Source: Candidatus Ribeiella danica (GTDB lineage Bacteria > Chloroflexota > Chloroflexia > Chloroflexales > Roseiflexaceae). From it: a stretch of 64,000 nt of DNA. Location: the NCBI GenBank assembly GCA_016717335.1, contig JADKFS010000012.1, positions 29,421 through 93,420 on the forward strand, given 5' to 3'. The notes beneath the pieces are model-generated. The model was given only the letters and a program-made list of their open reading frames with translations. It did no database searches and was not told the origin of the DNA. The stretch's first letter is position 1. The number at the start of each line of letters is the position of its first letter. The translations under genes and the position numbers were made by a program. Shown in pieces: positions 29,981 through 63,667 of this stretch.

Positions 29981-30075
29981 CCCCTCACCCCCTGCCCCCT
30001 CTCCCGCCGGGAGAGGGGGGAATTATTGGCTCGGCACGGGGTTTCGGCGGAGCTGAAACCCCGTGCCGAGCTACC
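29981..30075. repeat. MITE/REP-like element, family A (CCCCTCACCCCCTGCCCCCTCTCCCGCCGGGAGAGGGGGG + CGGCACGGGGTTTCGGCGGAGCTGAAACCCCGTGCCG hairpin)
   Basis: Read directly; same GGGGTTTCGGC..GCCGAAACCCC hairpin module as 9283-9418 and 63668-63806 copies. Confidence 0.85.
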
Positions 30076-30099
30076 GTTTCAACCCGACGAGTTCCATCC

Positions 30100-30235
30100 C
30101 GCCGCGCCTGGATTCCGCCGGGCACGCGCGCCAAGCCTGGCGCACGAGGCAGCCTTCTTTTTGGGGTCCAGGGGCGAAGCCCCCGACAAGCTACGGGTGC
30201 GCAAGACGCAAGCGGGGCTGCGCGGCCCAAGCAAC
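30100..30235. repeat. Repeat family C (CGCCTGGATTCCGCCGGGCA...CTTTTTGGGGTCCAGGGGCGAAGCCCC), single copy
   Basis: cgccgcgcctggattccgccgggcacgcgcgccaagcctggcgcacgaggcagccttctttttggggtccaggggcgaagcccc; same unit is 3x tandem at 47585-48130. Confidence 0.8.
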
Positions 30236-33039: not shown

Positions 33040-33460
33040 ATGTGCCTGGCTCGATCGCCGGCACGGATGCCTGCGATGCAGCACACCAGTATATACGTAA
33101 ACGCTCCGCTTTGGTTGCTGGGTACTGTGCTACTGTGCTGTTCGGGGGCTGCGCGCCCCTGCCCCCGCGCGAGTACACGTGTGTTCGGGGGGCTGCGCGC
33201 CCCCCGCGACCCCGCGGGTGGGGGTGGGCCGCCACCCCCGCCGCCCCCCGGCCGGGGCTTCGCCCCTGGACCCCAAAATGACGCTACCTCATCTTCAGCA
33301 CTTGGTGCGCATGCCCAGCTGAATCCAGGCGCGGCGAGAGACAACACGTCCGATCGGAATGGTGCCAGGCATGGGCCACCAGCAATGCAACCGGGAAGGC
33401 ATCATTTGCCAGAGGGGGGCCGGGGCGCAGCGCCCCGGAAAAGCCTCGCGCGCAGCGCGC
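33040..33460. repeat. Composite repeat cluster: GGGGCTGCGCGCCCC hairpins, family C fragment (GGGGCTTCGCCCCTGGACCCCAAAA), CGGAATGGTG..GGCATGGGCCAC..ATTGCAAC..CATCATTTGCCAGAGGGGGGCC module
   Basis: Read directly; modules shared with 24540-25100 (same orientation) and 47413-47560 (reverse orientation). Confidence 0.8.
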
Positions 33461-33463
33461 CAG

Positions 33464-35980
33464 CTAGCGCGTCAGCGCCACCTTCACCACCACCTCGCCG
33501 CGCAGGGTGATGTGGGCCGTCTGGGCAACCTGGTGGCCGTCGCTGGTCGCGCGGGCCTCGCTGGCGCTGAACACTAGGTCCTGCGCGGCGTGGCCCTTGC
33601 GGGCGAGGCGCTGCTCTGGCTGGGCGGCGATACGCAGCGGCGCGGCCGCGGCGCCCGGCAGCACGCGCTTGAGCACCGCCCGCGCGCGCGCGACTAGCGC
33701 GCCCGGCACGCGCGCCTCCTCCAGCGTTACCAGCGGCCGGTGCGCCGGCGCGCCTTCCGCGCCCGCCAGCTTCGGGGCGGCCCAGCCGGAGGCGGCGGCC
33801 AGCGGCGCCACGCCGGCCCACGGGTCGCCCAGCAGCACGAACTCGCCCAGGGTCTTGACGTCGACGTCGTCCAGGAAGCCCTGGCGGTGATAGATCGTCT
33901 GCGCGAACTCCAGCCGGGCCTGCTGCAGCGCATGGCCGACCGGCAGGCCGCGCGCCAGGTGCGCGAGCAGCCGCTGGCAGAGCAGGTCGGCGCAGACCAG
34001 CGGCGCGGCGTAGCTGCCGTAGGCGCTGGCCGTCGCGCCGACGCAGGCCAGCGCGCCCTCGGCCAGCGCGCGCAGGGGGATCGAGGTCGCGGTCGTGCGG
34101 CCGGGCAGCTCCATCCCGTAGCAGGCCTCGCTCACCAGGATGCCGCCGGCGACCACGCCGCCGATCTGGTCGGGGCGCAGCGCCACCGGCAGGCGCGACG
34201 CCGCGCCCGACCCGATCCCCTCGCCCTGGCCGTACCAGTTCGGCAGGCCGGCGCCGCCGTGCAGGTTGACGTACAGCAGCCGGCGCGCCGCCAGCGCGCG
34301 TGGGTCGAGCGCGTCGGCGTCGAGCGGCGGCGAGGCGTGCAGCGCGGCGTCGCGCTCGATCGCGTCGAGCACGGCGCGCGAGCTTTCCTGCCAGACGCGG
34401 GCGGTGTAGCCGCCGCTCAGGGCCGCCTGCGCGTGCGGCGGCCAGCGCACGCCCAGCAGCCCGCGGCCGGCAGGGATCTGAGCGACGGGCCGCGGCATCC
34501 GGCCGTGATGGTAGTCGATCATCTGATCGAGCGTGGCCAGCAGCAGCGCGGGGCTGGGGCCGGCGCCGTCCGGCAGCCGCGCGACGATGCGCTGTGGCGC
34601 CAGGTAGCCGGCGTCGTCGCTGGCGTACGGGCTATCGGACAGCACGACGCCGTCGTCGTCGTGGGCCGGGTTCGGCAGGCGGTGAAACGGGATGCACTCG
34701 TCGCCGCCGATCAGCAGCAGCACCGCCAGCTCGCGTCGCTCCTGCGCCAAGGCCGCCGACATCGCGCGCACCAGCTCGCCGATCGCCGCAGCGTCGCGCG
34801 GCACCGGCGCGAGCGAGACGCCGCCGCCGACCCGCAGCGAGGCCGCGTCGTCGAGATAGCAGCAGTGCGTCTGAAGGCCGCGCCGCCCCAGCGCGGCCGC
34901 GAGCGCGCGCAGGCGCCGATCGATCGCCGCGAAGGCTGCCTCGCCGTAGCGCTCGATCAGCGCGAACCGGCAGCCCAGCAGCACCTGGGCCTGCGGGCAA
35001 GCGGCGGCCGGGTTTGCCAGCGGCCCCGGCGCGCCTGTGACGCTGGCGACTCGCAGTCGCACGCGCTCGGTCGTGGCGATCAGGCTGCTGACATCCGGGT
35101 CGGGCTGGGGCGGTGCGGGCGGCAGGTTCGCTTTGGCGCCGGCGGCAGATTTGCGGGCCGGGCCGAGGCGGAGCGGCAGCAGCGTCAGAAACGGTCGGAT
35201 CGAGTCGAGTGCGGCTGCCCATGCCAATGCTGGCGGCGGGGCAGGCTCCCAGGGTGGCGGCTCGGGCGCGGCCAGCAGGCGCGCCTGCTGCCCGTCGGGG
35301 TCGTAGCCGGCACAGCGGGCGCGCGCGACGGCGCCGTCGCCGGGCCAGGCGCCAAGGGCCAGCTGTAGCAGTGTCGCCGGCAGGCTGGCGCGCTCCAGGT
35401 CCACGAGCAGCGCGAGCTGGCTGCGCGCCGCGCCCAGGTTATCGCAGCGCCGCAGCGCCTCGACGTAGTACAGACGCAGGTCCGCCCGCCGCGGCTCGCG
35501 CGCGAGGGCCGCCGCAAGCTCGGCGACCGCCAGGTCGGCCAGGCCGCGCCGCAGGTAGAGCACGCCCAGCCCGAGCGGCTGGGGCGAGTCGCCCAATCCA
35601 GGCGCCGTGTCGCCGAGCGGGTCGTGCAGCGCCGCCCGCCGCAGCGCAGCCTGCGACTCCTGAAGCCGCCCGCACCGCGCGAGCGCGGCGGCCAGGCCGG
35701 CCCACGCGGCGGCGCTGAGCGGGTTCAGCTTCAGCGCGCGGTGAAAGTGCGCGGCGGCCTCCTGGTGCCGACCCAGGTCGAGCAGCGCCTGGCCGAGCAG
35801 GGCCAGCGGCGAGATCGCCTCGGGCCAGCGCTCGCGCACGGCAATAGCCGCCTGCCGGGCCGCCTGAGGCTCGCCCAGGCGCAGCGCCAGCTCGATCGCG
35901 CGGCAGACCTGCTCCAGATCGAGCGGCTGGTCTTCAGAAGCCGTTGCAGCGCCAGGGTGGGCTAACAGCCGATCGCTCAT
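33464..35980 (-). CDS. TPR-repeat protein with C-terminal caspase-like (CHAT-type) peptidase domain
   Basis: True start MSDRLLAHPG at 35980 (ATGA overlap with stop of upstream NACHT gene; the track's 1033-aa version is a frame-overlap extension). N-terminal TPR-like helices; C-terminal LYVNLHGGAG...(46 aa)...GILVSEACYG gives His-Gly / Ser-x-Ala-Cys dyad spacing typical of caspase-fold CHAT/C14 peptidases. Confidence 0.7.
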   Translation of the reverse strand: MSDRLLAHPGAATASEDQPLDLEQVCRAIELALRLGEPQAARQAAIAVRERWPEAISPLALLGQALLDLGRHQEAAAHFHRALKLNPLSAAAWAGLAAALARCGRLQESQAALRRAALHDPLGDTAPGLGDSPQPLGLGVLYLRRGLADLAVAELAAALAREPRRADLRLYYVEALRRCDNLGAARSQLALLVDLERASLPATLLQLALGAWPGDGAVARARCAGYDPDGQQARLLAAPEPPPWEPAPPPALAWAAALDSIRPFLTLLPLRLGPARKSAAGAKANLPPAPPQPDPDVSSLIATTERVRLRVASVTGAPGPLANPAAACPQAQVLLGCRFALIERYGEAAFAAIDRRLRALAAALGRRGLQTHCCYLDDAASLRVGGGVSLAPVPRDAAAIGELVRAMSAALAQERRELAVLLLIGGDECIPFHRLPNPAHDDDGVVLSDSPYASDDAGYLAPQRIVARLPDGAGPSPALLLATLDQMIDYHHGRMPRPVAQIPAGRGLLGVRWPPHAQAALSGGYTARVWQESSRAVLDAIERDAALHASPPLDADALDPRALAARRLLYVNLHGGAGLPNWYGQGEGIGSGAASRLPVALRPDQIGGVVAGGILVSEACYGMELPGRTTATSIPLRALAEGALACVGATASAYGSYAAPLVCADLLCQRLLAHLARGLPVGHALQQARLEFAQTIYHRQGFLDDVDVKTLGEFVLLGDPWAGVAPLAAASGWAAPKLAGAEGAPAHRPLVTLEEARVPGALVARARAVLKRVLPGAAAAPLRIAAQPEQRLARKGHAAQDLVFSASEARATSDGHQVAQTAHITLRGEVVVKVALTR

Positions 35981-38900: not shown

Positions 38901-41900
38901 CCGCGGCGCCCGCATGCTCGCCCAGCGCGTGCAGGCAGCGCCCGAGCGCGGAGTGATGCTCGGCATTGCCGGCGTCCAGCAGAGCGGCGCGGCGCAGGCA
39001 GGCGAGCGCCGCCGCGTGGCCGCCCGCGTCCACGTGGGCCTGCCCGAGCGCGTAGTGCCACTCGGCCCGCGCGGGCTCGCGCTCGGCCGCGGCGCCGAGG
39101 TGTAGGATCGCGCCGGCGTGGTCGCCCGCGCCGGACAAGGCGCGCGCCAGCGTCACACGGTGCGCGGCGACCTGGGGCGCGAGCGCGACCGCTCGCTCCG
39201 CACAGGCGCGCGCCTGCCCCCAGTCCTGCGACTGGGCGTAGATCCGGCTGAGCTGCGCGTGGGCCTCGGCCAGGCTCGGGTCGATCTGCAGCGCCCGCTG
39301 GAGCGGCTCGGCCGCCGCGCCGGGATCGCCCGCGCCAAGCAGCAGCTCGGCCAGGCGCAGGTGGTGCCGGGCGCAGTCAGGGGCCAGCGCCAGCGCCTCG
39401 CGCGCCGCCCGCAGCGCGTCGGCGGGCTGGCCGGCCCGGTCGAGCAGGTCGCGCAGCGCGGCAAAGGCCGCGTCGGTCGGTGCCAGCGCGGCGGCCCGCG
39501 CGAGCAGCGGCAGCGCCTGGTCGTCGCTGCCGAGCTGGACCAGCGCCTGGCCGGCGATCAGCGCCGCGTCGGCCAGGTCCGGGGCGAGCTGAAGCGCAGC
39601 CTGCGCGCTCGACAGCGCCGATGGCGGCTGCTCCAGCTCCAGCAGCACGCGCCCGCGGCCAAGGTGCGCGCCGACCAGAGTCGAATCGCGTGCCAGCGCC
39701 CGGTCGAACAGCTCCAGCGCCTCGTGCGGGCGGCCAAGCCGCAGCGCCAGCTCGCCGGCGTGCTGCTGGTGTGCGGGCAGCGCCGCCGCGAGCCGGGCGG
39801 ACTGGCGCGCAGCCTGGTAGGCTGCCTCGATCTGGCCGCAGGCGCCGAGCGCCTCGCTGTAGTGGAACAGCGTCTGGGGGTCGTCGGGCTGGATCTGCAG
39901 CGCCTGCGCGAACGCCGCGAGCGCCTCGTCCAGCCGCCCGGCCAGGGCGAGCGCGCGACCGAGAGCTTCGTAGGCGGGCGCCGTCCGCTCGAGTCGCAGC
40001 GACCGGCCGAGCGCCCGGATCGCGCGGCCCCAGGACGCGTCGGCGACATGGGCCAGGCCGGCCTGGTAGAGCGCCGCCGCGTTCCGGCGGTCGCTGCGCA
40101 GCGCGCGCGCCAGGTGCCTGCGGGCCTGGGCGCGATCGCCGAGCCGGAGCCGCATGGCGCCGGCCGCGCGCGCGAACTCGGCGCGCCCCGGGGCGAGCGC
40201 GGCTGCACGCTCGTACGCGGCGAGCGCCGGCTCGATCTGCCCGGCGGCCTCGGCGACCGTCCCGGCGTCGTAGTGCAGCTCGGCGCGCGCGGGCGCAAGC
40301 GTGGCGGCGCGCCGGAGGTGCCGGGCCGCCGGGCGCAGCTGGCCCAGCTCGCGATGGGTCCGGCCGAGCGCGCGCTCATAGTCGGCGCTGTGCGGGTCGA
40401 GCGCCAGCGCGCGCCGGTAGGACTCGAGCGCCGGCTCGTGCTGCCCCTGGCGCCACAGCAGCTCCGCTATGTCAGCGTGCGCGGCAGCGCTGTCGGGGCG
40501 CAGGCCAAGCGCGGCCCTCAGCACGAGCTGCGCCTCCTCGTCGTCGCCGCGGTCGCGCAGCAGCGCCCCAAGGCGGTGCTGGTAGGCGTCATTCAGGGGA
40601 TCGAGGCGCACGGCGTGGCGATACGCTGCCAGCGCGCCGGATTGCTCGCCGCACAGCTCGCAGGCCTCGCCAAGCTCGAACGACAGCGCGGCGCTGCCGG
40701 TGTCCAGCTCGGCGGCGCGCTGCAGAGCCGCCCGCGCGCCGGAGCAATCGCCCAGGGCGCGCCGCAGCCGGCCAACCTCGCGGTAGAGCTCGGGCCGCGC
40801 CGGCTCGATCGCCGCAGCCTTCAGGTAGCAGGCGATCGCCTCGGCCAGCCGCCCGGCGCCGCCGTAGAGCCGGCCAAGCTCGGCGTGCGCCGCCGCGTCG
40901 TCGCCATGCTCGTCCAGCAGCGCGTGGAGGAGCGCCTCGGCCTCGTCTGCCTGCCCGCTCAGGCGCAGCGCGCTCGCCACGCTGCGCTGGTATGCCGGAT
41001 CGTCCGGCCGTCCCGCCAGCGCCTGCCGATACGCCGACAGCGCGCGCTCGGCCTGACCCTGCCGCAGGTAGACCTGGCCGAGCTCGTAGGCGGCCTCGGA
41101 CAGGCGGTGCTGCTGCGCCTGCACGACCGCCTCTAGCGCGACCGCGGCCTGGTCCATCTCACCCAGCCGGCTGCAGACCACGCCCAGCTCCTGGCGGTAG
41201 CGCAGGTCGCCGGCCTCGCGGGCGAGCGCCTGCTCGTAGGCCGCGCGCGCGTGGCGCCACTGCCCGGCCGCGCCATACAGCTCGCCCAGACGCCCGAACA
41301 GGCCAGCCTCATCGTAGCCATCGAGCGCGGCCCGCTCGAGCTGTTCGAGCGCGGCGGCGGACAAGCCCTCGGCGGCAAAGGCGTCAGCCAGCATCACGCG
41401 CAGCGGCGGGGTCAGGGCGCCAATCCGCGCCAGCAGCGGCTCGAACTGGCCCGGCGCCTCGGCGTCGATCAGGCAGCGCGCCGCAAGCGACACCGCGCCG
41501 TTGGCGAGCAGCCGGCGCAGCACCGACTCGCGATCGCCGCACAGGCTATACGCCAGCACGACCGCGTCGCCCGAGGCGCGCGCGAAGCTGCCGGCCGGCC
41601 AGGTCTCGGGGCTCGCGCGGGCGAGCAGGAGCGCCTGGCCAAACGCGCGCAGCGCCGGGCGTCGAAACGAGACCTGCTGCCGCTCGGGGTCGAGCGCCAG
41701 GATGCCCGCGCCCACCAGCAGCTGCAGCAGCCCCGGCGCCATATCCGGCGTGGGCGAGTCCCGCGCGCCGATCGCCGCCAGCGCCTCGGCTATGCTCAGC
41801 GAGCCGCGCCGGTCGCGGTCGAGCGCCGCCGCAAGCTCAGGCAGCGCCGCGAGCGCCGCCTCCGCCGTCGCCGGCGACCGGTGCGCCTCCAGCGCCGCGG

Positions 41901-42741
41901 CGATCACGGCGGGCAGCCATGCGGCCAGCAGCCGGCCGCGGCTCAGCGGCCCGGTCGGCCCCAGCTCATGGGCGATCCCGCCTGGCAGCGCGGCCAGCCA
42001 GCGCGGGCAGGCGGCCAGCTCGGCCAGGTCTTCCGCGCGCTGCAGCCAGCCGGCCAGCTCGTCGCCGTGCCGTCGCTGGATCAGGCCGAGCGCGTCGCGC
42101 GGCTGCAGCGCGCGGATCTCGCGCACCTCGGCCGCGCCGAGCCAGGGGCGGAACAGCGCCAGGCGCTCGCTCCGGCAGGTGCAGATCCAGCGCGCCTGAG
42201 GGCCGAGCGCCGCCAGCGTGTGCGACAGCGCCGACAGGCTGATCAGCTGCATGTCCGGCGCGACCTCGTCTAGCCCGTCGAGCAGCACCAGCAGCGGACG
42301 CTGCTGGGCCAGCTCCTGCAGCGAGGGGGCCTCCGGTCCAAATCCAGCGGCGAAGGTTGCCTCGACGCTGTGCTGGAAGCATGCCAGCTCGATGTACAGC
42401 GGCAGCGGCAGGGGGCTTTTGGCCCTGCCCGAGGTCGCGCTGGCGGGCTCGCCCGCATCCTCCGCGAGGATCGCCTCGGCCAGCCCGCAGGCGAGCTGCC
42501 GCAGCAGCGTGGTCTTGCCGGCACCGGCCGGGCCGGCCAGCATGAGCCGCGGCCAGATCTCGGCGGCCATCTGGATCGTCACGCGCGCGGCCCTGGGCGG
42601 CCAAAGCGCCTGCTCGCCCGCGGGCTCCCGCTCGCCGGCGCGGGCCAGCCACAGCGGCACGACCTCGCGCGACCCGCTGAAGCGCGGGTCGGCGCGCAGC
42701 GCCTGCAGGTAGAGCTGAATCCAGGCTTTGGTTCTACTCAT
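35977..42741 (-). CDS. Giant STAND NTPase: N-terminal NACHT-type P-loop domain followed by ~1700 aa of TPR repeats
   Basis: Start MSRTKAWIQLYLQ at 42741 (AT-richer upstream region); Walker A LMLAGPAGAGKTTLLRQL, Walker B LLVLLDGLDEV, then dozens of 34-aa TPR units (A..Y..AL.L.P..A.....LG...). 2254 aa. Confidence 0.8.
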   Translation of the reverse strand: MSRTKAWIQLYLQALRADPRFSGSREVVPLWLARAGEREPAGEQALWPPRAARVTIQMAAEIWPRLMLAGPAGAGKTTLLRQLACGLAEAILAEDAGEPASATSGRAKSPLPLPLYIELACFQHSVEATFAAGFGPEAPSLQELAQQRPLLVLLDGLDEVAPDMQLISLSALSHTLAALGPQARWICTCRSERLALFRPWLGAAEVREIRALQPRDALGLIQRRHGDELAGWLQRAEDLAELAACPRWLAALPGGIAHELGPTGPLSRGRLLAAWLPAVIAAALEAHRSPATAEAALAALPELAAALDRDRRGSLSIAEALAAIGARDSPTPDMAPGLLQLLVGAGILALDPERQQVSFRRPALRAFGQALLLARASPETWPAGSFARASGDAVVLAYSLCGDRESVLRRLLANGAVSLAARCLIDAEAPGQFEPLLARIGALTPPLRVMLADAFAAEGLSAAALEQLERAALDGYDEAGLFGRLGELYGAAGQWRHARAAYEQALAREAGDLRYRQELGVVCSRLGEMDQAAVALEAVVQAQQHRLSEAAYELGQVYLRQGQAERALSAYRQALAGRPDDPAYQRSVASALRLSGQADEAEALLHALLDEHGDDAAAHAELGRLYGGAGRLAEAIACYLKAAAIEPARPELYREVGRLRRALGDCSGARAALQRAAELDTGSAALSFELGEACELCGEQSGALAAYRHAVRLDPLNDAYQHRLGALLRDRGDDEEAQLVLRAALGLRPDSAAAHADIAELLWRQGQHEPALESYRRALALDPHSADYERALGRTHRELGQLRPAARHLRRAATLAPARAELHYDAGTVAEAAGQIEPALAAYERAAALAPGRAEFARAAGAMRLRLGDRAQARRHLARALRSDRRNAAALYQAGLAHVADASWGRAIRALGRSLRLERTAPAYEALGRALALAGRLDEALAAFAQALQIQPDDPQTLFHYSEALGACGQIEAAYQAARQSARLAAALPAHQQHAGELALRLGRPHEALELFDRALARDSTLVGAHLGRGRVLLELEQPPSALSSAQAALQLAPDLADAALIAGQALVQLGSDDQALPLLARAAALAPTDAAFAALRDLLDRAGQPADALRAAREALALAPDCARHHLRLAELLLGAGDPGAAAEPLQRALQIDPSLAEAHAQLSRIYAQSQDWGQARACAERAVALAPQVAAHRVTLARALSGAGDHAGAILHLGAAAEREPARAEWHYALGQAHVDAGGHAAALACLRRAALLDAGNAEHHSALGRCLHALGEHAGAAEAIEHALRLRPDAALWRAELAQIQIERGWHAEALAELNHTIAASPGHHQLWRLRAGLHLELRQIEAARDDLAEALRRGPDDAASFALLSQLLASGGVYKDALAAAERAVDLQPTAKHRYLLAIALCGLDRRAESAGQLARALAEGGPDGWWAELADDYEALDRHEDARSAWPRAVAAMPEDATLRYRYGCLLAQLGERAGALAQLQQAIARAPQLAPAHARLAELLLEWPEAVPSEPFESPARESAVESARRAVALQPHQSDHWRILGEALLAQGAPDESLQALRRAHELDPANARAAFLLGSASLERGAVEAAVAALTAATAAAPDVAAYHGALGRAYRHNVPLVDEPDELHVAAESTRPALDRARAAFERAVALEPGSLRWRYELGLADQLLCRHAAAVESFDRCLAAPSAGEVGLTPRQAIRGVAQQEHVAPADILRRRALSLYLLGRPAEARADLDSAREQGAEAAADAYLLGRIAYELGDLSAAHAALVAAAGAEPDNPRMQLLLGRVLGALDRSPEAVVAVERATELRPDHAPTLAALSAAYTSLGRHERALAAAVRAVRLDPSVAAYHQRLATLYAHGGRLNEARAALINATTLQPGVAAWHAQMGEICLRLGISDAARSAHARAAQFDPTNVDYLYAYARLLAGQGLATEARAALEQALQLAPDRGEWHYQLGQLAGQLGDQRGGLDHFAAAVQLAPGVAEHWRTLAHAQRRHSSCEIALETLERALDRFGDDAQLHAAAGALLEQGQRHDQAAWHYRRAVAPDSGIAEHWWRLGRACLALGELAEARGSFERALTLDPRAAAAHAGMAQILAREADVEAVLRHIQRAAELAPDEVDYQMAYAEALAHARHFDAAHRVMERAVRLAPDDPEVQIRYGETALDVGLNREALAAFERAAELQPEQARYHFLAGKAHRRLKQYSRAIERYRRAVRLSPGYSEAIVELSTLGPLAFVAHHLRGADQEVLA

Positions 42742-42834
42742 TGCGTCTCGATCCAATATGTTGTCATATCGATGTGCCCCATTCCCTACCCGTGGTGGGA
42801 GTAAGTTTTGTCGAGCGCATCCTCGTGCGCTGCA

Positions 42835-42895
42835 GGCCCTCACCCCCCTGCCCCCCGCTCCCGCCGCCACAGGAGCGGGGGGGGTTGGCTGGGGC
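42835..42895. repeat. MITE/REP-like element family A, half copy (GCCCTCACCCCCCTGCCCCCCGCTCCCGCCGCCACAGGAGCGGGGGGGG)
   Basis: Read directly upstream of the giant NACHT gene. Confidence 0.75.
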
Positions 42896-42900
42896 GATCC

Positions 42901-43239
42901 TTACCGCACCAGCGACAGCATCCAGAAGCTGACGCCGCAGATGATCGTCCCCAGCAGGCACAGGAACGCCCCGGTGCCGATGGCGGTCTGGACGAGGCCG
43001 GTGATCGACTCGAACAGGCGCGCCGAGCTTTCGATCGCCGCCTGCACGCCGACGTCGCCGAGCAGCTTGCTGCTCAGGCGCGCGGACTGGCTGGAGAGCG
43101 AGCGCATGGCCTCCTGGTACTCGCGCGTCAGGATGATCACGATGCCGCTCACCAGCATCGCCAGGCCGGCCAGAAACAGCGCGACGGCCATGCCGATCTG
43201 TATTGTGCTGGACATATTCTCTTTCTCTATCCACCGCAT
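42901..43239 (-). CDS. Small membrane protein (3 TM), unknown function
   Basis: 112 aa; MAVALFLAGLAMLVSGIVIIL and GAFLCLLGTIICGVSFWMLSLV hydrophobic segments; normal codon bias. Confidence 0.5.
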   Translation of the reverse strand: MRWIEKENMSSTIQIGMAVALFLAGLAMLVSGIVIILTREYQEAMRSLSSQSARLSSKLLGDVGVQAAIESSARLFESITGLVQTAIGTGAFLCLLGTIICGVSFWMLSLVR

Positions 43240-43244
43240 TGCCA

Positions 43245-43480
43245 GTCGGCAGTCGGCAGTGCGGCAGTCGGCAGTGCGGCAGCAGGCAGTCGGCAGTCGG
43301 CAGCAGGCAGTCGGCAGCAGGCAGTCGGCAGCAGCAGGCAGTCGGCAGTCGGCAGGCAGTCGGCAGCAGGCAGTCGGCAGTCGGCAGCAGGCAGTCGGCA
43401 GTGCGGCGAAGGCATTCCAACGCGATTCAACATGCGCTCGTCGCGCTCTACAATCTACAATCTACAATCTGCAATCTACA
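43245..43480. repeat. Tandem arrays: (CAGTCGGCAG/CAGTGCGGCAG/CAGCAGGCAG)n ~17 units (43245-43430) then (TACAATC/TGCAATC) x5 (43441-43478)
   Basis: Read directly; 3' end of the GAF-protein CDS (..RLRVVDCRL) runs into the TACAATC array. Confidence 0.95.
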
Positions 43481-44847
43481 ACGCGCAGCCGGTCGGCGAT
43501 CAGGCCGCCGAGCAGCATCAGCAGCGTCTGGGTCGCGATGTCGGCGGGCCGCCCGAGCGCGGCCAGCACGACCGGCATATCCGCGCCCGCGCCGACCGGC
43601 AGGCAGACCAGGCTCGCGCGCCCTTCGGCGCGCACCAGCGGACGATCTCCGCGCAGCGCCTCGGCGGCCACCCGCAGCTGCGCCCCGCTCAGGTGCGGCG
43701 GGGTGGCGCCCGGCCGCCCGCGCGCGAAGACGAACGGGGCCAGGGCGTGCAGCTCGTCGGGGGCCAGCAGCGCCAGCCAGTCCAGATCGAGCACGCCTGC
43801 CAGTCTGCGGCAGGCCTCCTGGCAAGCCTCCCGGGGGTCGGGCGCGATGCGGAGCAGCCCGGCGGTCTCCCAGAGCGCGGTCAGCGCGGCCTGCTGGCGC
43901 CGCAGCTGCGCGTCGTGGCGCAGCGCCAGCGCCCGCAGCCCGACCAGCGCCGCCAGCTGCTCAAGGCCCGAGCGGCGGGCCGGGGTGAGATCGCCGGCGG
44001 GCAGCTCGATCCGGCCAAGCACGGCGCCGCAGCTGATCGGTATGCGTGCTGTGCCGGCGCAGCCATCGTGCTCAGGCAGGCTCCCCGCTCCCGCGTCGGC
44101 CAGCTCGACCACGGCGAGCGCGCCGCCAATCGCGCCGGCCTGCTCGCGCGCTAATCTCACCAGCGCGTCGATCGTCGCGCAGGCGTTGACCTGCGCGGCC
44201 AGGCGCCTCCAGTCGACGCGCCCAGCAGCCTCGCGGCCGTGATCGTGCGCCCTGGCGATCGTGCCGGCGTAGAGCGCGCGCAGCGCCAGCCGCACCTGCT
44301 CGCGAATGCGATAGACCGTGGCTCCGCCGATCAGCTGCACGGCCAGCATCGCCGCCAGCAGGCCCGGCGCCGGGCGAGAGACGGCGCAACCCGAGAGCAG
44401 GACCAGCGCGCCGACGCCGCTGCCCACCAGCGCGTCGCGCGCCGAGCCGAGCAGGGCGCCCTGGACGACGAGCAGCAGCGGCAGGCCAAGGAGCGGGCTG
44501 CCGGCGCCGCCGCTCCCCAGGATCAGCAGCCCGGCCGCCAGCCCGTCGGACAGCAGCGCGAGCGCGAGCGGCAGCCGCCAGGCCAGGCCCGCGCCGAGCG
44601 CGAGCGCCGACAGCGCGGCGGCGAGATAGAGTGCGGCCGGCCAGGTCGCCGGGGGAACATTCCAGCCCAGCGCTATCAGCGCGAGCAGCAGCAAGCAGCC
44701 GCGGACGGCGAATGATGCAGCCGTGCTCAGGCGCGCGAGGCGGCGCTGGAAGTGACTCAGGGCGGGCGCCTCGCCGTGCCGATCGCCTTGAGGCGTCACC
44801 GGCGGCCGAATGGAAGCGGCGCGAGACGGGCGGAGCGAGATGATCAT
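43462..44847 (-). CDS. Membrane-anchored GAF-domain sensor-like protein without recognisable output domain
   Basis: 461 aa; ~5 N-terminal TM helices then two GAF-like regions (by composition/inference); no kinase or cyclase motifs seen. Confidence 0.55.
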   Translation of the reverse strand: MIISLRPSRAASIRPPVTPQGDRHGEAPALSHFQRRLARLSTAASFAVRGCLLLLALIALGWNVPPATWPAALYLAAALSALALGAGLAWRLPLALALLSDGLAAGLLILGSGGAGSPLLGLPLLLVVQGALLGSARDALVGSGVGALVLLSGCAVSRPAPGLLAAMLAVQLIGGATVYRIREQVRLALRALYAGTIARAHDHGREAAGRVDWRRLAAQVNACATIDALVRLAREQAGAIGGALAVVELADAGAGSLPEHDGCAGTARIPISCGAVLGRIELPAGDLTPARRSGLEQLAALVGLRALALRHDAQLRRQQAALTALWETAGLLRIAPDPREACQEACRRLAGVLDLDWLALLAPDELHALAPFVFARGRPGATPPHLSGAQLRVAAEALRGDRPLVRAEGRASLVCLPVGAGADMPVVLAALGRPADIATQTLLMLLGGLIADRLRVVDCRL

Positions 44848-44936
44848 GGGCGTCCTTCCTTATGATGCAACTGCACGTCGGATCAGTGGGTTTAGCGCAA
44901 GGGCGCAGCCGCGATGCTGAAAACGAACGTTTGGAG

Positions 44937-44975
44937 GGGGTCTTGGGGAGGGCTTCGCCCTTCCCAAGTCCCTCC
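44937..44975 (-). terminator. Stem-loop CTTGGGGAGGGC-ttcg-CCCTTCCCAAG downstream of amidase gene
   Basis: 12-bp stem (1 mismatch) 50 bp after amidase stop at 45024. Confidence 0.35.
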
Positions 44976-45023
44976 CCTGAAGTGGTGAAGCTTCTAAGCA
45001 TTCGCAGGTGAACGGTATTGGGG

Positions 45024-46301
45024 CTAGCCGGGCAGCGCGCCGAGCCGCGCGATCGACTTCCAGTCGCCAACCTCGCAGTAGGCCACGTCGAGCGCGAACG
45101 CCTCGGCGACGTAGTCGCGGCCGTCGAGCGCGACGCGGAAGCTCGGGCCGAGCGGCGCGCCGAGCGACTGCGCGAGCGCGTACCGGTGGATCTGCCAGTC
45201 GGCGCGCAGCCGGCTGCCGGCACGGCGGTACAGCTGCTCCTGCAGGGCCTCGGCCAGCGCGGACTTTGGGCCGGCGGCCGGGCGCGCGAGCAGCTCGCTG
45301 AGCCGTGCGATCTCCCTCCAGCTGCCGGCCGGGCTGAAGATCGTGTCGAGCGCGTAGCACGCGGCGACGTAGTCCTGGCCGGCCGCGCCGACCCGCCAGC
45401 CCGGGCCCAGCGGCGGCCCAAGCGGCGCGCGCTCGGCGTACTGGTGCAGCGCCCAGCCGGGGCGGTAGGTCTCGCCGGCCTGGGCGTAGACTGCCTGCGT
45501 CAGCGCCTCGCGCAGCGGCTGCTGCTCCGGCGCGGCCAGCGCGGCCTGCCGCACGACGCGCTGCCAGTCCCCGATCGGGCTCAGCAGCGTCTCGCGGCCG
45601 AACGGCTGCGCGATATAGGCGCGGCCGGCCACAGCCAGCTCGAACGACGGCCCGACCGGCAGGCCCAGCCCCTCGGCGCGCGCCAGGCGGTGCATCGCCC
45701 ACTCCGGCCGATCGGTCGCGCCGACCTGCCGGTAGGCCTCGGCGCGCAGCGCCCGCGCCAGCCCGACCGGGCCGTCGCCGGGCGAGGGCGGCCGCGGCGG
45801 GCGCTCGTCCGGCGACGCGGGCTGCTGCGGGAAGAGCTGGCGGATAAACTCGGCCCAGGGGAAGCCGGCCGGGTCGGATTTGCGGCCGGGCGGCTGCGCG
45901 ACGTCGCGGTGGCGCACGACCATGGCGGGCGCGATCTGGTAGCGGGCCACCTTGTCGCGCGCGAGCCGCAGCAGCGCGTCGACCTGCCCGGCCGGGTACG
46001 GGTCGCGGCCGTCGTTGGCGTTCTCAAGCTCGATCCCGAGCGAGATCTCGTTGATCGCCGTCTCCCCGCGCCAGCCGGCGCGGCCGGCGTGCCAGGCCGC
46101 CAACTCGTCGGGCACGAGCTGGTAGACCTGGCCCTGCTTGTCGATCAGGTAGTGCGCCGAGACGCGCGCGGCGGCGTTCGTCAGCCAGGCCAGCGCGCCG
46201 CGCAGGCTGCCCGCCGTCGCGTGGACGACCAGCATGGCTATGTCCCGGCCGCCGCGGGCGCCGTAGTTGGGTGAGCGAACGGTGGCGATCATATGGCACA
46301 C
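45024..46301 (-). CDS. N-acetylmuramoyl-L-alanine amidase (Amidase_2/PGRP domain) with three ~65-aa C-terminal repeats
   Basis: N-terminal MLVVHATAGSLRGALAWLTNAAARVSAHYLIDKQGQVYQLVPDELAAWHAG...ISLGIELEN matches Amidase_2/PGRP zinc amidase motifs; C-terminal three repeats (YRQVGATDRPEWAMHRLARAEGLGLPVGPSFELAVAGRAYIAQPF / YAQAGETYRPGWALHQYAERAPLGPPLGPGWRVGAAGQDYVAACY / YRRAGSRLRADWQIHRYALAQSLGAPLGPSFRVALDGRDYVAEAF). Confidence 0.8.
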   Translation of the reverse strand: MCHMIATVRSPNYGARGGRDIAMLVVHATAGSLRGALAWLTNAAARVSAHYLIDKQGQVYQLVPDELAAWHAGRAGWRGETAINEISLGIELENANDGRDPYPAGQVDALLRLARDKVARYQIAPAMVVRHRDVAQPPGRKSDPAGFPWAEFIRQLFPQQPASPDERPPRPPSPGDGPVGLARALRAEAYRQVGATDRPEWAMHRLARAEGLGLPVGPSFELAVAGRAYIAQPFGRETLLSPIGDWQRVVRQAALAAPEQQPLREALTQAVYAQAGETYRPGWALHQYAERAPLGPPLGPGWRVGAAGQDYVAACYALDTIFSPAGSWREIARLSELLARPAAGPKSALAEALQEQLYRRAGSRLRADWQIHRYALAQSLGAPLGPSFRVALDGRDYVAEAFALDVAYCEVGDWKSIARLGALPG

Positions 46302-46722: not shown

Positions 46723-47412
46723 GTGCGGAGTCGATCCCTAGCCCCACGGCGTGCGCGGATCGTCCTAGCTGACCAGCAGGTGCTGTTCAGGCAAATGCTC
46801 AGCTACCATCTCTCCCACGGCGGCCATACCGTGGTCTACGAAGCCGGCGATGGCAGCGCGCTCGAGCAGGGTATGATCGACCGCGAAGTCGACATCGTCG
46901 TGATCGATCGGTATCTGCCGGGCATCGACAGCCTCGCCTACTGTAGGATGCTGAACGCGCTCCAGCCGTACATCCAGATCCTGCTCCTGGTCGCGTACGA
47001 GCACGAGGCCAGGGCCCTGCAGGCGACCGCCTTCCTCGCTGGGGCCGGCGGCTGCCTCTCGAAGGATCTCGAGCCGCAGGCGTACCTGGCGGCGATCCAC
47101 CAGCTCCTGGAGGGCTACGTGCTGTTTCACGCCGAGGTGATGCGGCGGGCCGCGCGACCGCCGATGCTGAGCGGCTCGGCGGCGCAGCTCCAGGGGCTCA
47201 CCGGCCGCGAGCGCGAGATCCTCGAACTGGTCGCCGAGGGGATGAGCAACCGCGAGATCGCCAGGCAGCTCGACATCAGCTACCATACGGCCATGAAGCA
47301 CGTCAGCAACATCATCGGCAAGCTCAAGGTGAGCAATCGCATGGAGGCCGGGCTGGTGCTGCTGCGCCACAACGAGAGCGCGATGCTTTTGCCCGATCGG
47401 GCAGACGATTAG
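46723..47412 (+). CDS. Orphan response regulator, NarL/FixJ (LuxR HTH) family
   Basis: GTG 46723 after AAGAGGCAAAGAGG; RIVLADQQVLFRQML...VVIDRYLPGIDS receiver; C-terminal LTGREREILELVAEGMSNREIARQLDISYHTAMKHVSNIIGKL LuxR HTH; no adjacent kinase. Confidence 0.85.
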   Translation: MRSRSLAPRRARIVLADQQVLFRQMLSYHLSHGGHTVVYEAGDGSALEQGMIDREVDIVVIDRYLPGIDSLAYCRMLNALQPYIQILLLVAYEHEARALQATAFLAGAGGCLSKDLEPQAYLAAIHQLLEGYVLFHAEVMRRAARPPMLSGSAAQLQGLTGREREILELVAEGMSNREIARQLDISYHTAMKHVSNIIGKLKVSNRMEAGLVLLRHNESAMLLPDRADD

Positions 47413-48230
47413 GGGCTGCGCCCCCGGCCCCCCGCCCGGGGGAACCCGCGCCGGTTCAGGCGGCTGCGCCAGGCCTTTCTTCCGGGGCGCTGCGCCCCCG
47501 GCCCCCCTCCGGCAAATGATGCCGTACCAGCTGCAATCGTCGTGGCCCATGCCCATCAACATTCCGAAGAGCCGGGTTGTATTCCCCCGCGCCTGGATTC
47601 CGCCGGGCATGCACGTCAAACATTGCAACTGAGGCGGCATTCTTTTTGGGGTCCAGGGGCGAAGCCCCGGCCGGGGGGCGGCGGGGGTGGCGGACCACCC
47701 CCGCCCGCGGGGGCGCGGGGGGCGCGCAGCCCCCCGTACAAACGTGTGCGCATCCCGCCGCGCCTGGATTCCGCCGGGCATGCACGTCAAACATTGCAAC
47801 TGAGGCGGCATTCTTTTTGGGGTCCAGGGGCGAAGCCCCGGCCGGGGGCGGCGGGGGTGGCGGACCACCCCCGCCCGCGGGGCGCGGGGGCGCGCAGCCC
47901 CCGTACAAACGTGTGCGCATCCCGCCGCGCCTGGATTCCGCCGCCGTCAAACGCCCGGTCGGGCGCAGCCGGCGCGGGGGCGCGGGGGGGGGGGGCCTGG
48001 ATTCCGCCAGCGTCAAACATTGCAACTGAGGCGGCATTCTTTTTGGGGTCCAGGGGCGAAGCCCCGGCCGGGGGGCGGCGGGGGTGGCGGACCACCCCCG
48101 CCCGCGGGGGTACGGGGGGCGCGCAGCCCCCCGCAGGGCTTGGGCGCGGGGGCACGGGGGCGCGCAGCCCCCAGACTAATTCCGCGAACTTGACAATCTG
48201 GCGGTGTTGCGGATGATCAGGAGCCGTCAG
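47413..48230. repeat. Repeat cluster: reverse-oriented CATCATTTGCC module, then ~175-bp family C unit in three tandem copies (47585-47760, 47760-47938, 47938-48130), includes a 12-nt poly-G run at 47985-47996
   Basis: Read directly; units begin CGCCTGGATTCCGCCGGGCATGCACGTCAAACATTGCAACTGAGGCGGCATTCTTTTTGGGGTCCAGGGGCGAAGCCCC. Confidence 0.9.
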
Positions 48231-48262: not shown

Positions 48263-50737
48263 GTGGCGTCGTACAAACCCGACCCGCCCCCGCTGTTGCA
48301 GCAGTACCAGCGCGCCGCCGGAGCCGGCTCGGCAGGTATCGCCGCGTCAGCCCCCGAAGCCGGCCAGGCCCTGATCAGCTATCTGCGCGCGATCGTCGCG
48401 CAGGCCCGCGATATTCCGCTCGGCCGGGTGGGCGCGCCCGCGCGCCGCCTGCCGCTGCTCGACCTGTACCTGGAGCGCGGGCTGCTGCCGCTCGAACCGG
48501 CGGCTGAGTCGGCCGAGCGCCCGCAGCCCGGCCAGCCGCTGCTCCGGTCGCCGCTCGATCTCATCCGCCCGGCCGGCGCGCGGATCGTGCTCGAGGGGCG
48601 GGCCGGCTCCGGCAAGAGCACATGCCTGCGCCGGCTGGCGCTGGCGTGCGCCGCCAGCTGGCTGGGCGAGCCGGATCTCTACGGCGATCTGCTGGCGGCG
48701 TGGCCCGGCCCGCCGCCCCTGCCGCTGCTGCTGTCCGCGCGCGACGGCTGCGGCGCGGACCCGCTTAGCCCGCCTGGACTCGACCCCGCGGCGCGGCCGG
48801 CGATCCGCGAGCAGCTGCAGCTCGGCCGCGCGCTGGTGCTGATCGATGGGCTCGACGACCTGGCCGACCGGCAGGAGTTGGACGCCGCGCTGGCGGCGAT
48901 CGAGCGGCTGAGCGCGCAGTATCCCGCGAACAGGTACGTCGTCGCGAGCGGCCCGCGCGCCGATCGTCGGCTGGCCGGCTTCGCGCGCTATAGCCTGGCC
49001 CCGCTCGACGCCGCCGAGGTCGACGCGATGATCGCGCGCTGGTACGGGGCGATCGCCGGGGAGGGCGCGCCGGATGTTGGCGAGCGCGTCGCCGTGCTGC
49101 AGGGCCACATGCGCGCCTCCAGGCAGCTCCACGCGCTGGCGGCCAGCCCGCTCGGCCTGGCGCTCTGCATCCTCGCGCACGCCGACGGGCACGCGCTGCC
49201 GGCGGAGCGCGGGGCGATCCTGGCCCGGCTGGCCGATCTGCTGCTCGACGGGTGGGATACGGGGAGCGCCGGCCTGCTCGCCCAGGTCGTCGGCGCGGGC
49301 CGGCCAACCAGCGTGGAGCAGCGCCTTGGCTTGCTGGAGCCGCTGGCGCTGGCGCTTCAGTCCGAAGCGGGCCAAGCGGCCGAGCAGCCGGGCGCGCTGA
49401 GCGACGCCACCGCTGCGATGCTCCTGCGCGCGCCGCTCGTGGCGCTGGGCGTTCCGGCCGAGCAGGCGAGCGCGCGGCTGCTCGATTGGTGCTGCGACAG
49501 GGGCATTCTGACCCAGGCCGGAGCGCAGGGCGACCGCACGATCGCGTGGCCGCCGCTGCGCGAGTACCTGGCCGCGCGCGCGCTGGCGGCCGCGCCCGAC
49601 TTTGTCGAGCGCGCGGCTGGCCTCGGCGGCGACCCGCGCTGGCACGAGCCGATCGCCCTGGCGATCTCGGAGCTTGGCCGCGAGCGGGCGCCGCAGGCGG
49701 CCGGCGAGCTGTTTCGGCGCCTGATCGAGCGCGCCGATAAGCCGGCCAGGCGACCGGCAAGTCGCGCCCCGGCATCTGCGCCCGAGGCGGCAGAGCCGCC
49801 GTGGGGCGCGACCCTGCTCGCCGCCGCGTGCCTGCTGCAGCTGGGCAGCTCGGAGGCGCGTGTCGAAGCGCTGCGCGTGGAGGCGCGGGCGCGCCTGGTG
49901 GAGCTGATGCAATCGCGCGCGTGCCCGCTGGCCGCGCGCGTGCGGGCGGGGCTGCTGCTCGGCGAGCTGGGCGATCCGCGGTTCGCAAGCCTGCTTCCGC
50001 CGCTGGCGCACATCCCGGCCGGGGCGTTCGTGCTGGGCGCGCAGGGGCGCTACGAGGACGAGGGGCCGACGCAGCGCGTCAACGTGCCCAGCTTCTCGAT
50101 CGGGCTGTACCCGGTCACCAACCACGAGTACGCGCGGTTTCTGGCCGACGAGCTGGGCTACCCGCCGCCGCGCTACTGGCACGACCCGCGCTTCAACAAC
50201 CCGGCCCAGCCGGTCGTGGGCGTGACGTGGCACGACGCGAGCGCCTACTGCCGCTGGCTGAGCGAGCGCCTGGCCCTGGCCGGCCTGCTGCCGGCCGAGA
50301 TGACCGCGCGGCTGCCGCTGGAGGTCGAGTGGGAGAAAGCCGCCGGCTGGGACGCGCGGCGGCGCGCCAAGCGGCGCTACCCCTGGGGCGAGGAGTGGTC
50401 GAGCGCGCGGGCCAACACGGCCGAAGCGCGCGGGGCGTGGGTCACCGCGCCGGTAGGGTGCTACCCGGAGGGTGTGAGCCCGTTCGGAGCGCACGATATG
50501 ATCGGCAACGTGTGGGAGTGGATGGCGAGCGTCTACGCCAGCTACCCCGGTTCGGCGGCGCCGTTCCACGAGCCGAAAAGCTACGTGCTCCGCGGCTCCT
50601 CGTGCGTCTCGCTGCCCAAGGAGGCGCGCTGCACCTATCGCAGCCGTCTGCCGGCCGACTACTGGCGCTACCACCTCGGCTTTCGCGTGGTGGTCGCGAG
50701 CCCGCTGGACGGCGGCAGCGGTCAGCGCATCGATTGA
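48263..50737 (+). CDS. STAND NTPase with NACHT-type P-loop domain, HEAT/PBS-lyase-like repeats and C-terminal FGE-sulfatase (formylglycine-generating enzyme/SUMF1-like) domain
   Basis: GTG start 48263; Walker A IVLEGRAGSGKSTCLRRL, Walker B ALVLIDGLDDL; C-terminal YPVTNHEYARFLADE...VVGVTWHDASAYCRWL...GNVWEWM...VLRGSSCVSLPKEARCTYRSR...HLGFRVV matches FGE-sulfatase fold motifs. Confidence 0.8.
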   Translation: MASYKPDPPPLLQQYQRAAGAGSAGIAASAPEAGQALISYLRAIVAQARDIPLGRVGAPARRLPLLDLYLERGLLPLEPAAESAERPQPGQPLLRSPLDLIRPAGARIVLEGRAGSGKSTCLRRLALACAASWLGEPDLYGDLLAAWPGPPPLPLLLSARDGCGADPLSPPGLDPAARPAIREQLQLGRALVLIDGLDDLADRQELDAALAAIERLSAQYPANRYVVASGPRADRRLAGFARYSLAPLDAAEVDAMIARWYGAIAGEGAPDVGERVAVLQGHMRASRQLHALAASPLGLALCILAHADGHALPAERGAILARLADLLLDGWDTGSAGLLAQVVGAGRPTSVEQRLGLLEPLALALQSEAGQAAEQPGALSDATAAMLLRAPLVALGVPAEQASARLLDWCCDRGILTQAGAQGDRTIAWPPLREYLAARALAAAPDFVERAAGLGGDPRWHEPIALAISELGRERAPQAAGELFRRLIERADKPARRPASRAPASAPEAAEPPWGATLLAAACLLQLGSSEARVEALRVEARARLVELMQSRACPLAARVRAGLLLGELGDPRFASLLPPLAHIPAGAFVLGAQGRYEDEGPTQRVNVPSFSIGLYPVTNHEYARFLADELGYPPPRYWHDPRFNNPAQPVVGVTWHDASAYCRWLSERLALAGLLPAEMTARLPLEVEWEKAAGWDARRRAKRRYPWGEEWSSARANTAEARGAWVTAPVGCYPEGVSPFGAHDMIGNVWEWMASVYASYPGSAAPFHEPKSYVLRGSSCVSLPKEARCTYRSRLPADYWRYHLGFRVVVASPLDGGSGQRID

Positions 50738-50869: not shown

Positions 50870-50959
50870 TTAGCACTTGGGGCAGTCGTCGTCGGCGTAG
50901 GGGCCGTGCTCGGGGCAGTCGTCGCCGGGAGCGTCGTCGGGAAGAGGCAGATCGTCCAT
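50870..50959 (-). CDS. Possible 29-aa acidic Cys-containing peptide MDDLPLPDDAPGDDCPEHGPYADDDCPKC
   Basis: ATG at 50959 with GAAGGA ~10 nt upstream; TAA stop; GC3-rich codons; two DDCP motifs; not in ORF track (below length cutoff). Convergent with NACHT-FGE gene end. Confidence 0.25.
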   Translation of the reverse strand: MDDLPLPDDAPGDDCPEHGPYADDDCPKC

Positions 50960-54202: not shown

Positions 54203-54432
54203 CGAACGCTGAACGCTGAACGTTGAACGCTGAACGCTGAACGTTGAACGCTGAACGCTGAACGCTGAACGAACGTTTGAACGCGTTTGAATGTTTGAAC
54301 GTTGAACGTTTGATCGAACGCTTTGAACGTTTGAACGTTTGAACGCCGGCTATCAACAGCCCCAAGCCCCAAGCCCCAAGCCCCAAGCCCCAAGCCCCAA
54401 GCCCCCAGGCCCAAGCCCCAAGCCCCACTCGT
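54203..54432. repeat. Two adjacent tandem heptamer arrays: (GAACGCT/GAACGTT/GAACGTTT)n ~20 units (54203-54352) then (CCCCAAG) x10 (54358-54432)
   Basis: Read directly. Confidence 0.95.
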
Positions 54433-56915: not shown

Positions 56916-56999
56916 GGGGACGTGGCGAAATGGCAGACGCGCAAGTCTTAGGAACTTGTGGAGCAATCCGTAAGGGTTCAAGTCCCTTCGTCCCCACCA
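56916..56999 (+). tRNA. tRNA-Leu (anticodon TAG)
   Basis: GGGGACG...CGTCCCCACCA acceptor stem, anticodon stem-loop CAAGT-CTTAGGA-ACTTG, long variable arm, T-arm AAGGGTTCAAGTCCCTT, encoded CCA; 84 nt. Confidence 0.85.
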
Positions 57000-58113: not shown

Positions 58114-58199
58114 AAAACAACATAATGATATGACCAAGATATGCTACAATATCCGCATCCATACGCCATTCGAGCCAGAATTGCGGAAGGCTAGCGGCG

Positions 58200-63589: not shown

Positions 63590-63667
63590 AGACACTCCCT
63601 CGTGGATCACGCGGCTTCTGGTAATGGCCTATTGTACGACAATTATGCGCGGCGCTGTGCGATATTT

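Follow-up and report, generated by a model that had tools for sequence, protein, structure and literature searches.

The NACHT-FGS gene and its NTPase module

The window analyzed here, a 64,000 nt stretch of contig JADKFS010000012.1 from Candidatus Ribeiella danica, contains on its forward strand a gene for a STAND NTPase of the NACHT type joined to a C-terminal domain with the formylglycine-generating enzyme (FGE)-sulfatase fold, hereafter the FGS domain. The reading frame of this gene, which we call NACHT-FGS, is open only from position 48254, so that a longer N-terminus is impossible. Its GC content at third codon positions (GC3 = 0.91) is like that of the other genes in the window, in which the overall GC content is ~70%. 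An NCBI entry (P0001) with 100% identity to the deduced protein, from a Chloroflexota, Roseiflexaceae metagenome-assembled genome, bears the name 'SUMF1/EgtB/PvdO family nonheme iron enzyme [Kouleothrix sp.]'. The gene and its parts are as follows.

48263..50737, + strand: NACHT-FGS gene, a single open reading frame (ORF) of 824 aa with a GTG start; STAND NTPase with C-terminal FGE-sulfatase-fold domain
48190..48217, + strand: sigma-70-like promoter match TTGACA-16-GATGAT, ending 46 nt 5′ of the GTG; a consensus match only
48563..48997, + strand: NACHT nucleotide-binding domain (NBD), aa ~101-245
48596-48622, + strand: Walker A GRAGSGKST, aa 112-120
48833-48862, + strand: Walker B LVLIDGLDDL, aa 191-200
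48998..49987, + strand: helical and winged-helix part of the NACHT module (aa ~246-430) and helical arm (aa ~431-575)
50009..50692, + strand: FGE-sulfatase/C-type-lectin-fold (FGS) domain, aa 583-810, lacking both copper-binding FGE cysteines

The promoter-like sequence was found once, where 0.1 matches were expected from shuffled sequences.

The initial annotation described the N-terminal half as a NACHT-type P-loop NTPase, and this assignment is borne out. In a Pfam search the protein matched NACHT (PF05729) with 31.3 bits, above the gathering cut-off of 26.7, and the same profile was matched by 23/23 family members with a best E-value of 5e-11. The Walker A Lys118 and the Walker B Asp195 are invariant among the 23 relatives. 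An AlphaFold2 model computed with 23 homologues reached a pLDDT of 82.9 and a pTM of 0.82, and its NBD, helical and winged-helix parts resemble those of solved NLRs. Fold searches with this model bore out both ends of the protein, a NACHT module at the N-terminus and a complete FGE-sulfatase fold at the C-terminus.

The protein carries no fused effector domain. No Pfam family matched aa 1-100, for which the model shows two helices only, and ~75 additional N-terminal helical residues present in close relatives are missing from the window protein. Between the two modules lies the helical arm (aa 431-575), which has about seven helices and, at 493-512, a disordered loop, and which ends in an 'LGELGDPRF' helix that also precedes the FGE fold of ToxD. 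This linker had been read as HEAT/PBS-lyase-like repeats, a reading that we abandon: no HEAT family matched the protein at E ≤ 1 in Pfam, none was among the families listed for the 23 relatives at E ≤ 0.1, and the only homologue annotated with HEAT_2 (P0036) aligns to the NBD alone. Neither profiles nor fold comparison supported a HEAT/PBS-lyase array or a HEAT/ARM solenoid between the NACHT and FGE parts.

One position of the NBD departs from the family. The column that we take to be the NACHT sensor-1 Arg after strand 4 (the 'TSRP' motif) holds Arg in 21/23 family members, while the window protein and its 90%-identical relative have Gly230 (codon 48950-48952, in 'VVASGPRADR').

The FGS domain is complete but lacks the catalytic cysteines of FGE

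A match to FGE-sulfatase (PF03781) with E=1e-49 places the C-terminal domain at aa 583-810 and takes in profile positions 7-254 of 255, in agreement with the complete FGE/SUMF1 fold proposed initially. It shares with human SUMF1 and the bacterial FGEs (PDB 1y1e, 2q17, 5nxl) the same fold (Foldseek E~1e-11, 26-27% identity) and the structural motifs LPxExEWE, PWG, GNxWEW, RGxS and GFR, but is fused to an NTPase, has an active-site loop shorter by three residues and lacks C336/C341 as well as the structural disulfides. The best matches in both sequence and structure are ToxD (7spq), CalU17, PvdO and SUMF2; ToxD aligns to aa 544-809 at 34-37% identity with the helical 'LGDPR' lead-in included. 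In contrast to the window protein, these are stand-alone proteins, none of them fused to a STAND NTPase.

The two C-terminal cysteines had been reported with a spacing of nine residues and taken as a deviating catalytic pair, from which a non-canonical function was suggested. They are C781 and C790, spaced Cx8C. In a BLASTP alignment with human FGE (the sequence used is identical to PDB 1y1e), C781 lies opposite Y334, a three-residue gap spans C336-H-R, Pro785 lies opposite C341, and C790 lies opposite C346 of a structural disulfide, the partner of which, C235, is absent from the FGS domain. Both Cu(I)-binding positions (human C336 and C341) are thus lost, and C781 and C790 are not homologous to the catalytic CxxxxC pair; the conclusion of a non-canonical function stands, whereas the argument from cysteine spacing does not. 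Within the family, C781 is replaced by Phe or Trp in 7/23 members and C790 by Ser or Ala in 4/23.

The scores against the NCBIfam equivalogs EgtB, SenA, OvoA and PvdO were far below threshold, 54-100 bits against cut-offs of 360-500 (TIGR03440, 99.5 vs 360; SenA, 81 vs 420; OvoA, 55 vs 400). The sulfoxide synthases EgtB, OvoA and SenA place their iron site on an N-terminal DinB-like domain. A profile search detected no DinB domain in the NACHT-FGS protein, in which the region N-terminal to the FGE fold is the NACHT module. We therefore rejected an identity as catalytic FGE or EgtB. As the copper ligands are missing, the equivalog scores are low and DinB was not detected, the database name 'nonheme iron enzyme' is generic and probably misleading here.

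The C-terminal module had been proposed to be either a ligand sensor or an oxidative effector. For the latter, the domain would be an active enzyme of the FGE, EgtB or PvdO/ToxD kind, controlled by the NACHT module. In its favor, the domain has a complete fold of high conservation, and the closest solved relatives, ToxD and CalU17, presumably belong with PvdO to biosynthetic pathways, judging by their names (ToxD, toxoflavin; CalU17, calicheamicin), so that a chemistry other than that of FGE can be imagined. Against this, both copper-binding cysteines are gone, C781 and C790 are variable in the family, no DinB-type iron domain accompanies the fold, and all invariant FGS residues sit in what we take, from general knowledge, to be the FGE-sulfatase signature motifs (LPxE.EWE, PWG, GNVWEW, RG, GFR). 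Because of the loss of the catalytic cysteines and the variability of the remaining two, we regard an oxidative effector as very unlikely; the description as probably a sensor holds.

The FGS domain is also the most conserved module of the protein, with 59-71% identity to close relatives compared with 32-51% for the NBD, the helical/winged-helix region and the arm.

A receiver gene and a convergent Cys/His peptide gene flank NACHT-FGS

On the forward strand of the window, the gene order is response regulator, 850 bp of repeats, NACHT-FGS and a PfkB kinase gene. A small ORF lies convergently between the last two. Related genes were compared in loci from relatives and metagenomes (designated L) and in contigs of homologous proteins (designated P).

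46723..47412, + strand: response regulator (receiver + LuxR/GerE helix-turn-helix), upstream same-strand neighbor of NACHT-FGS
50870..50959, - strand: 29-aa small ORF MDDLPLPDDAPGDDCPEHGPYADDDCPKC, convergent with NACHT-FGS and 132 nt from its stop, between NACHT-FGS and PfkB
L084 3583-3690, L085 1577-1684 and L089 2710-2832, with others in L090-L128: peptide genes in metagenome and relative loci
L084 4045-6699, + strand: second NACHT-FGS paralogue, following the peptide gene; Walker A GDLGSGRTT (Lys to Arg)

The Cys-containing peptide noted next to NACHT-FGS in the initial annotation is a real and conserved gene. It is preceded by an AGAAGGA Shine-Dalgarno-like motif, and in L089, the locus of the 90%-identical relative, the ORF differs by one substitution, which is synonymous, while the flanks differ by ~6%. 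Peptide genes with the core DAPGDDCP[DE]HGPYADDDCPKC lie just downstream of and convergent with NACHT-FGS in L084 and L085, and the P0008 contig has a predicted gene of 29 aa at the corresponding site. The NACHT-FGS proteins of these three loci are only ~47-50% identical to that of the window, and yet the peptide core is nearly invariant. Gene callers list the product as a 29-aa 'hypothetical protein', and the family comprises 29 clusters of 27-68 aa, in which Pfam found no domain match. Its near-invariant C-terminus, GDDCP[DE]HGPY[AG]DDDCPKC, holds two knuckle-like motifs, CPxHG and CPxC. Since the only change against L089 is synonymous, the gene is kept in relatives and called by gene callers, and its products form a family, the 29-aa ORF is a genuine gene, and we consider the peptide a candidate partner of NACHT-FGS.

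A metagenome scan yielded 39 peptide loci, ~30 of them informative. NACHT-FGS is the convergent neighbor at 12 (L091, L092, L094, L095, L096, L102, L110, L112, L113, L114, L126 and L127). The loci L105 and L109 seemingly lack NACHT-FGS, but their homology to sister contigs ends exactly at the peptide stop, where the GC content drops from ~0.64 to ~0.5; as probable chimeric assemblies or foreign insertions, they were set aside. A phage origin of the peptide was not supported, as no match was found in the phage collection searched.

In the clade of the relatives, a stand-alone receiver gene of 132 aa overlaps the NACHT-FGS start. The block of receiver and NACHT-FGS followed by the convergent peptide gene recurs in L084, L096, L102, L110 and the P0008 contig; in the P0007 contig the receiver is present and the contig ends before the peptide site. 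The presence of NACHT-FGS itself is patchy. L106 is syntenic with the window (amidase 65% and LuxR-type response regulator 67% identical, then the peptide gene) with NACHT-FGS absent in between, whereas L084 and the P0008 contig carry NACHT-FGS duplicated in tandem. From the altered Walker A of the second L084 copy, the tandem arrangement suggests a sensor/helper-like pair in which one NTPase is degenerate. In L001 and L003, NACHT-FGS adjoins RNR and has none of the receiver, peptide or C25 peptidase partners.

Three copies (~125-170 nt) of a repeat fill the 850-bp gap upstream of NACHT-FGS. They belong to a dispersed GC-rich intergenic family found at 47412-48133, 24682-25013, 30073-30183 and 33175-33425. 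The family is also present in inverted orientation, with a complementarity of up to 94%, directly after the TPR-C25 peptidase gene described below. A simple inversion between the repeats at 33175-33425 and 47496-48133 that would restore the gene order of the relatives was considered and rejected, as the orientations are wrong and the family is dispersed. One copy was folded and showed no special structure (z = -0.23 vs shuffles). We treat the family as a genome-wide intergenic repeat.

A five-gene cluster with another NACHT protein and a caspase-fold peptidase

Upstream of the response regulator, a cluster of five genes occupies 33464-46301 on the reverse strand. In the order of the cluster, these are:

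45024-46301, - strand: Amidase_2, first gene of the cluster
43462-44847, - strand: 461-aa membrane protein (~460 aa in the cluster)
42901-43239, - strand: DUF7139/CdpA_N-like transmembrane protein, 105-112 aa
35977..42870, - strand: tetratricopeptide repeat (TPR) protein NACHT-TPR, the 'first' STAND protein of the window, 2297 aa (~2270 across the cluster)
33464..35980, - strand: TPR + Peptidase_C25 (clan CD, caspase-fold), assigned by profile search, last gene of the cluster and ~12 kb from NACHT-FGS

The NACHT module of NACHT-TPR is 33% identical to that of NACHT-FGS over 222 aa. The TPR-C25 protein matched Peptidase_C25 with 26.0 bits (gathering score 23) over profile positions 45-370 of 374, and its His574/Cys620 dyad is invariant. 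In the clade of the relatives, the convergent 841-aa protein after the second NACHT-FGS is the orthologue of the window TPR-C25 at 55% identity, and TPR-C25 orthologues abut the NACHT-FGS genes in L084, L085 and the P0008 contig. On the grounds of this neighborhood and by inference only, TPR-C25 is a candidate effector acting in trans. As a general partner of NACHT-FGS it was rejected, since it is nearby only in close Roseiflexaceae relatives and at no distant NACHT-FGS locus.

Roseiflexus sp. and other Roseiflexaceae (L086-L088) have the five genes in the same order and orientation, and NACHT-FGS is absent from the stretches examined around them. In the window, the block of receiver, NACHT-FGS and peptide gene lies on the amidase side of the cluster, and in L085 on the C25 side; its internal order is the same in both. 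The combination of STAND protein, caspase-fold peptidase and cell-wall amidase looks like a vertically inherited module for cell fate or autolysis.

Between the 461-aa gene and the small transmembrane gene, a 7-nt tandem repeat, CAGTCGG × 23, extends over 43243-43407. One frame of the array would encode a Cys-rich 'PTACCRL' repeat; as the small protein has its conserved start downstream of the array, the repeat is probably non-coding.

Distribution and comparison with known NACHT-FGS proteins

The architecture had been called unusual, but this is not the case. STAND/NACHT-FGS proteins have already been catalogued as putative NLR-type sensors (Kaur, 2020/2021; Kibby, 2022; Doré, 2024; a 2026 Nature survey) and are widespread. 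The window protein adds to this known kind a member that has no effector. The distribution of the fusion across genomes, a check suggested at the outset, gave full-length relatives at 26-31% identity (one genome per species) in Chloroflexota, Methylumidiphilus, Lysobacter, Verrucomicrobiota, Bryobacteraceae, Desulfobacterales and Phycisphaeraceae; the phyla represented are Chloroflexota, Pseudomonadota, Verrucomicrobiota, Acidobacteriota, Planctomycetota and Desulfobacterota. The N-termini of distant homologues found in the protein search carry TIR, SEFIR, effector-associated domain (EAD)-type or metallophosphatase domains.

The combination of STAND NTPase and FGS is described as common to many lineages of bacteria and archaea, in which the N-terminal effectors vary (Kaur et al., 2021, eLife; PMC8195603), FGS is one of two 'antigen-receptor-type' C-termini in bacterial NACHT proteins (Kibby et al., 2022; bioRxiv 10.1101/2022.07.19.500537), and FGE-sulfatase is listed among the STAND sensor types (2026 Nature survey; PMC13581612). 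NACHT/STAND-FGS proteins are viewed there as sensors of invaders (PMC8195603, PMC7159879, 10.1101/2022.07.19.500537, PMC13581612). The window protein resembles them in its central NACHT NTPase and single C-terminal FGE-sulfatase fold, its cytoplasmic nature, its multicellular filamentous host and the tandem paralogues among its relatives. Unlike them, it has no N-terminal effector or effector-associated domain and no diversity-generating retroelement (DGR) in the window, the sensor domain is the most conserved part in its family, and the window copy has Gly in place of the sensor-1 Arg. The receiver gene and the 29-aa Cys/His peptide gene are conserved neighbors here and are not mentioned in the text available from those reports.

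According to Doré et al., 2024 (PNAS; PMC10907252), NACHT proteins with C-type-lectin/FGE domains (NACHT-CLec) are DGR targets, for example in Thiohalocapsa PB-PSB1, often as two tandem targets, and a neighboring peptidase was proposed as effector; a peptidase is also near NACHT-FGS in the window family. A DGR-diversified 'adaptive' antigen receptor would share the overall architecture of these targets, as described there and in PMC8195603, and the window host is likewise filamentous and multicellular. However, the window locus has neither a pair of template and variable repeats nor a reverse transcriptase. No template repeat was detected in the window, where the best 60-nt match to the FGE-coding region was 40/60 and repeat searches over that region were empty; no reverse transcriptase motif was found in any long ORF of the window, nor a match to such a family in the 18 large neighboring ORFs scanned. 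Moreover, the C-terminal segment expected to hold the variable repeat is strongly conserved among relatives and not hypervariable. A DGR target was thus ruled out within the window, and we consider diversification of this kind extremely improbable.

Compared with eukaryotic NLRs (NOD2, NLRP3, NLRC4), the architecture of the NACHT module is alike, and as in pairs of Apaf-1/caspase-type STAND proteins with clan-CD peptidases, a clan-CD (C25) peptidase is near the window gene and adjacent in relatives. Unlike in NLRs and Apaf-1, the sensor of the window protein is a lectin/FGE fold and not LRR or WD40, there is no death-fold adaptor, and the peptidase is linked by neighborhood only.

A putative NLR-like switch with a non-catalytic sensor

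We favor the reading that NACHT-FGS is a cytoplasmic NLR-like STAND switch, the non-catalytic FGS domain of which would serve as ligand sensor in conflict or cell-fate surveillance, and give it a probability of about 0.5. The loss of the copper-binding cysteines argues for FGS as a ligand-binding sensor and not an enzyme. From the analogy to NLRs and Avs proteins, we infer that a ligand bound by the FGS domain would relieve autoinhibition, upon which the NACHT module may oligomerize in a nucleotide-dependent manner. Partner proteins encoded by other genes would then receive the signal of the assembly, a step suggested by the lack of a fused effector. Candidates for these partners are the receiver-domain protein that travels with NACHT-FGS, the 29-aa Cys/His peptide of the convergent gene and the clan-CD peptidase TPR-C25 encoded nearby. 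The most probable role of NACHT-FGS lies in the repertoire of conflict or cell-fate surveillance described for multicellular, filamentous bacteria. The patchy presence of the gene, its tandem paralogues and the immune effectors on distant homologues speak for a role in conflict.

The slow evolution of the sensor, its stable receiver and peptide neighbors and the lack of a defense context speak for an endogenous ligand. In a second, doubtful but conceivable reading, NACHT-FGS would accordingly be a housekeeping or developmental switch: the FGS domain would bind an endogenous ligand, such as the 29-aa mini-protein or a cell-wall-derived molecule, and the NACHT module would relay this through the receiver to filament, cell-wall or cell-death physiology together with the five-gene cluster. 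No part of the protein evolves more slowly than the FGS domain, the peptide core hardly varies across loci in which NACHT-FGS is only ~50% identical, the internal order of the block is the same whether it lies on one side or the other of a cluster conserved in Roseiflexus sp. and other Roseiflexaceae, and no defense genes are near NACHT-FGS. On the other hand, patchy presence and tandem duplication in some relatives are typical of conflict genes, distant homologues bear the immune effectors TIR and SEFIR, and some of the peptide loci devoid of NACHT-FGS lie by replication-type genes as on mobile elements.

A more specific proposal is that receiver, NACHT-FGS and the convergent peptide gene form a functional three-gene module. 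The FGS domain, derived from enzymes that clamp Cys-containing peptides, might bind and guard the endogenous CPxHG…CPxC mini-protein, and loss, modification or metal-loading of the peptide might trigger NACHT oligomerization and activate TPR-C25. We regard this as unlikely as a whole. If true, it would represent an NLR circuit guarding a self-ligand in filamentous Chloroflexota.

Several observations weigh against the surveillance switch that we favor. The conservation of the FGS domain is the opposite of the pattern of an antigen receptor in an arms race. The window copy, in view of Gly230, may hydrolyze or sense nucleotide abnormally, although R232, two residues further on, might compensate for the missing sensor-1 Arg. 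No defense-system model of PADLOC 2023 was matched, the hits being at the level of the P-loop only (E~0.005), and no recognizable defense island was found in the window, in which histidine kinases, ABC transporters, PfkB and the amidase represent ordinary chromosome. The LuxR-type receiver of the window and the stand-alone receiver of the relatives share 35% identity over 92 aa, which we judged ordinary for any two receivers, and their orthology was not accepted. About 17 informative peptide loci lack NACHT-FGS and have mixed contexts (DnaB-N + AAA_25, IstB-like, HSDR_N, an HSP70-like/AddB pair); these loci rule out the peptide as an exclusive partner of NACHT-FGS, and the linkage may be synteny only. 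The literature searched yielded no experimental test of any FGS-type STAND protein. We know of no ligand for any STAND-linked FGS domain.

The conservation of FGS above all other modules, the replacement of the sensor-1 Arg by Gly and the block of receiver, NACHT-FGS and peptide beside the five-gene cluster are new here. The block and the nearby C25 peptidase are fresh leads that are not mentioned in the portions of the literature available to us; they rest on neighborhood within one family and could reflect synteny. The locus offers a clean test case, in which an effector-less protein outside any DGR has an unusually conserved sensor and a receiver, a 29-aa peptide and a caspase-fold peptidase as neighbors. 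Binding of the neighboring 29-aa peptide by the FGS domain is a concrete hypothesis that is cheap to address. The analysis also corrects the 'nonheme iron enzyme' label in the database, which is very likely misleading for this protein.

Other features of the window

Further genes of the window encode histidine kinases, ABC transporters, an antiporter and an SPFH protein. Two large, well-coding ORFs had no Pfam match at E ≤ 1e-5, one at 58134-61082 (+ strand, 982 aa) and the other at 62411-63628 (- strand, 405 aa). Short-period tandem arrays at 182-356, 20234-20334 and 54358-54431 consist of 14-nt TTGGGACTTGGGGC-type and 8-nt GGAGACAA units; the two kinds of array are reverse complements of each other at distant sites in the window. 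The sole Rfam match in the window is a tRNA at 56916-56996 (+ strand).

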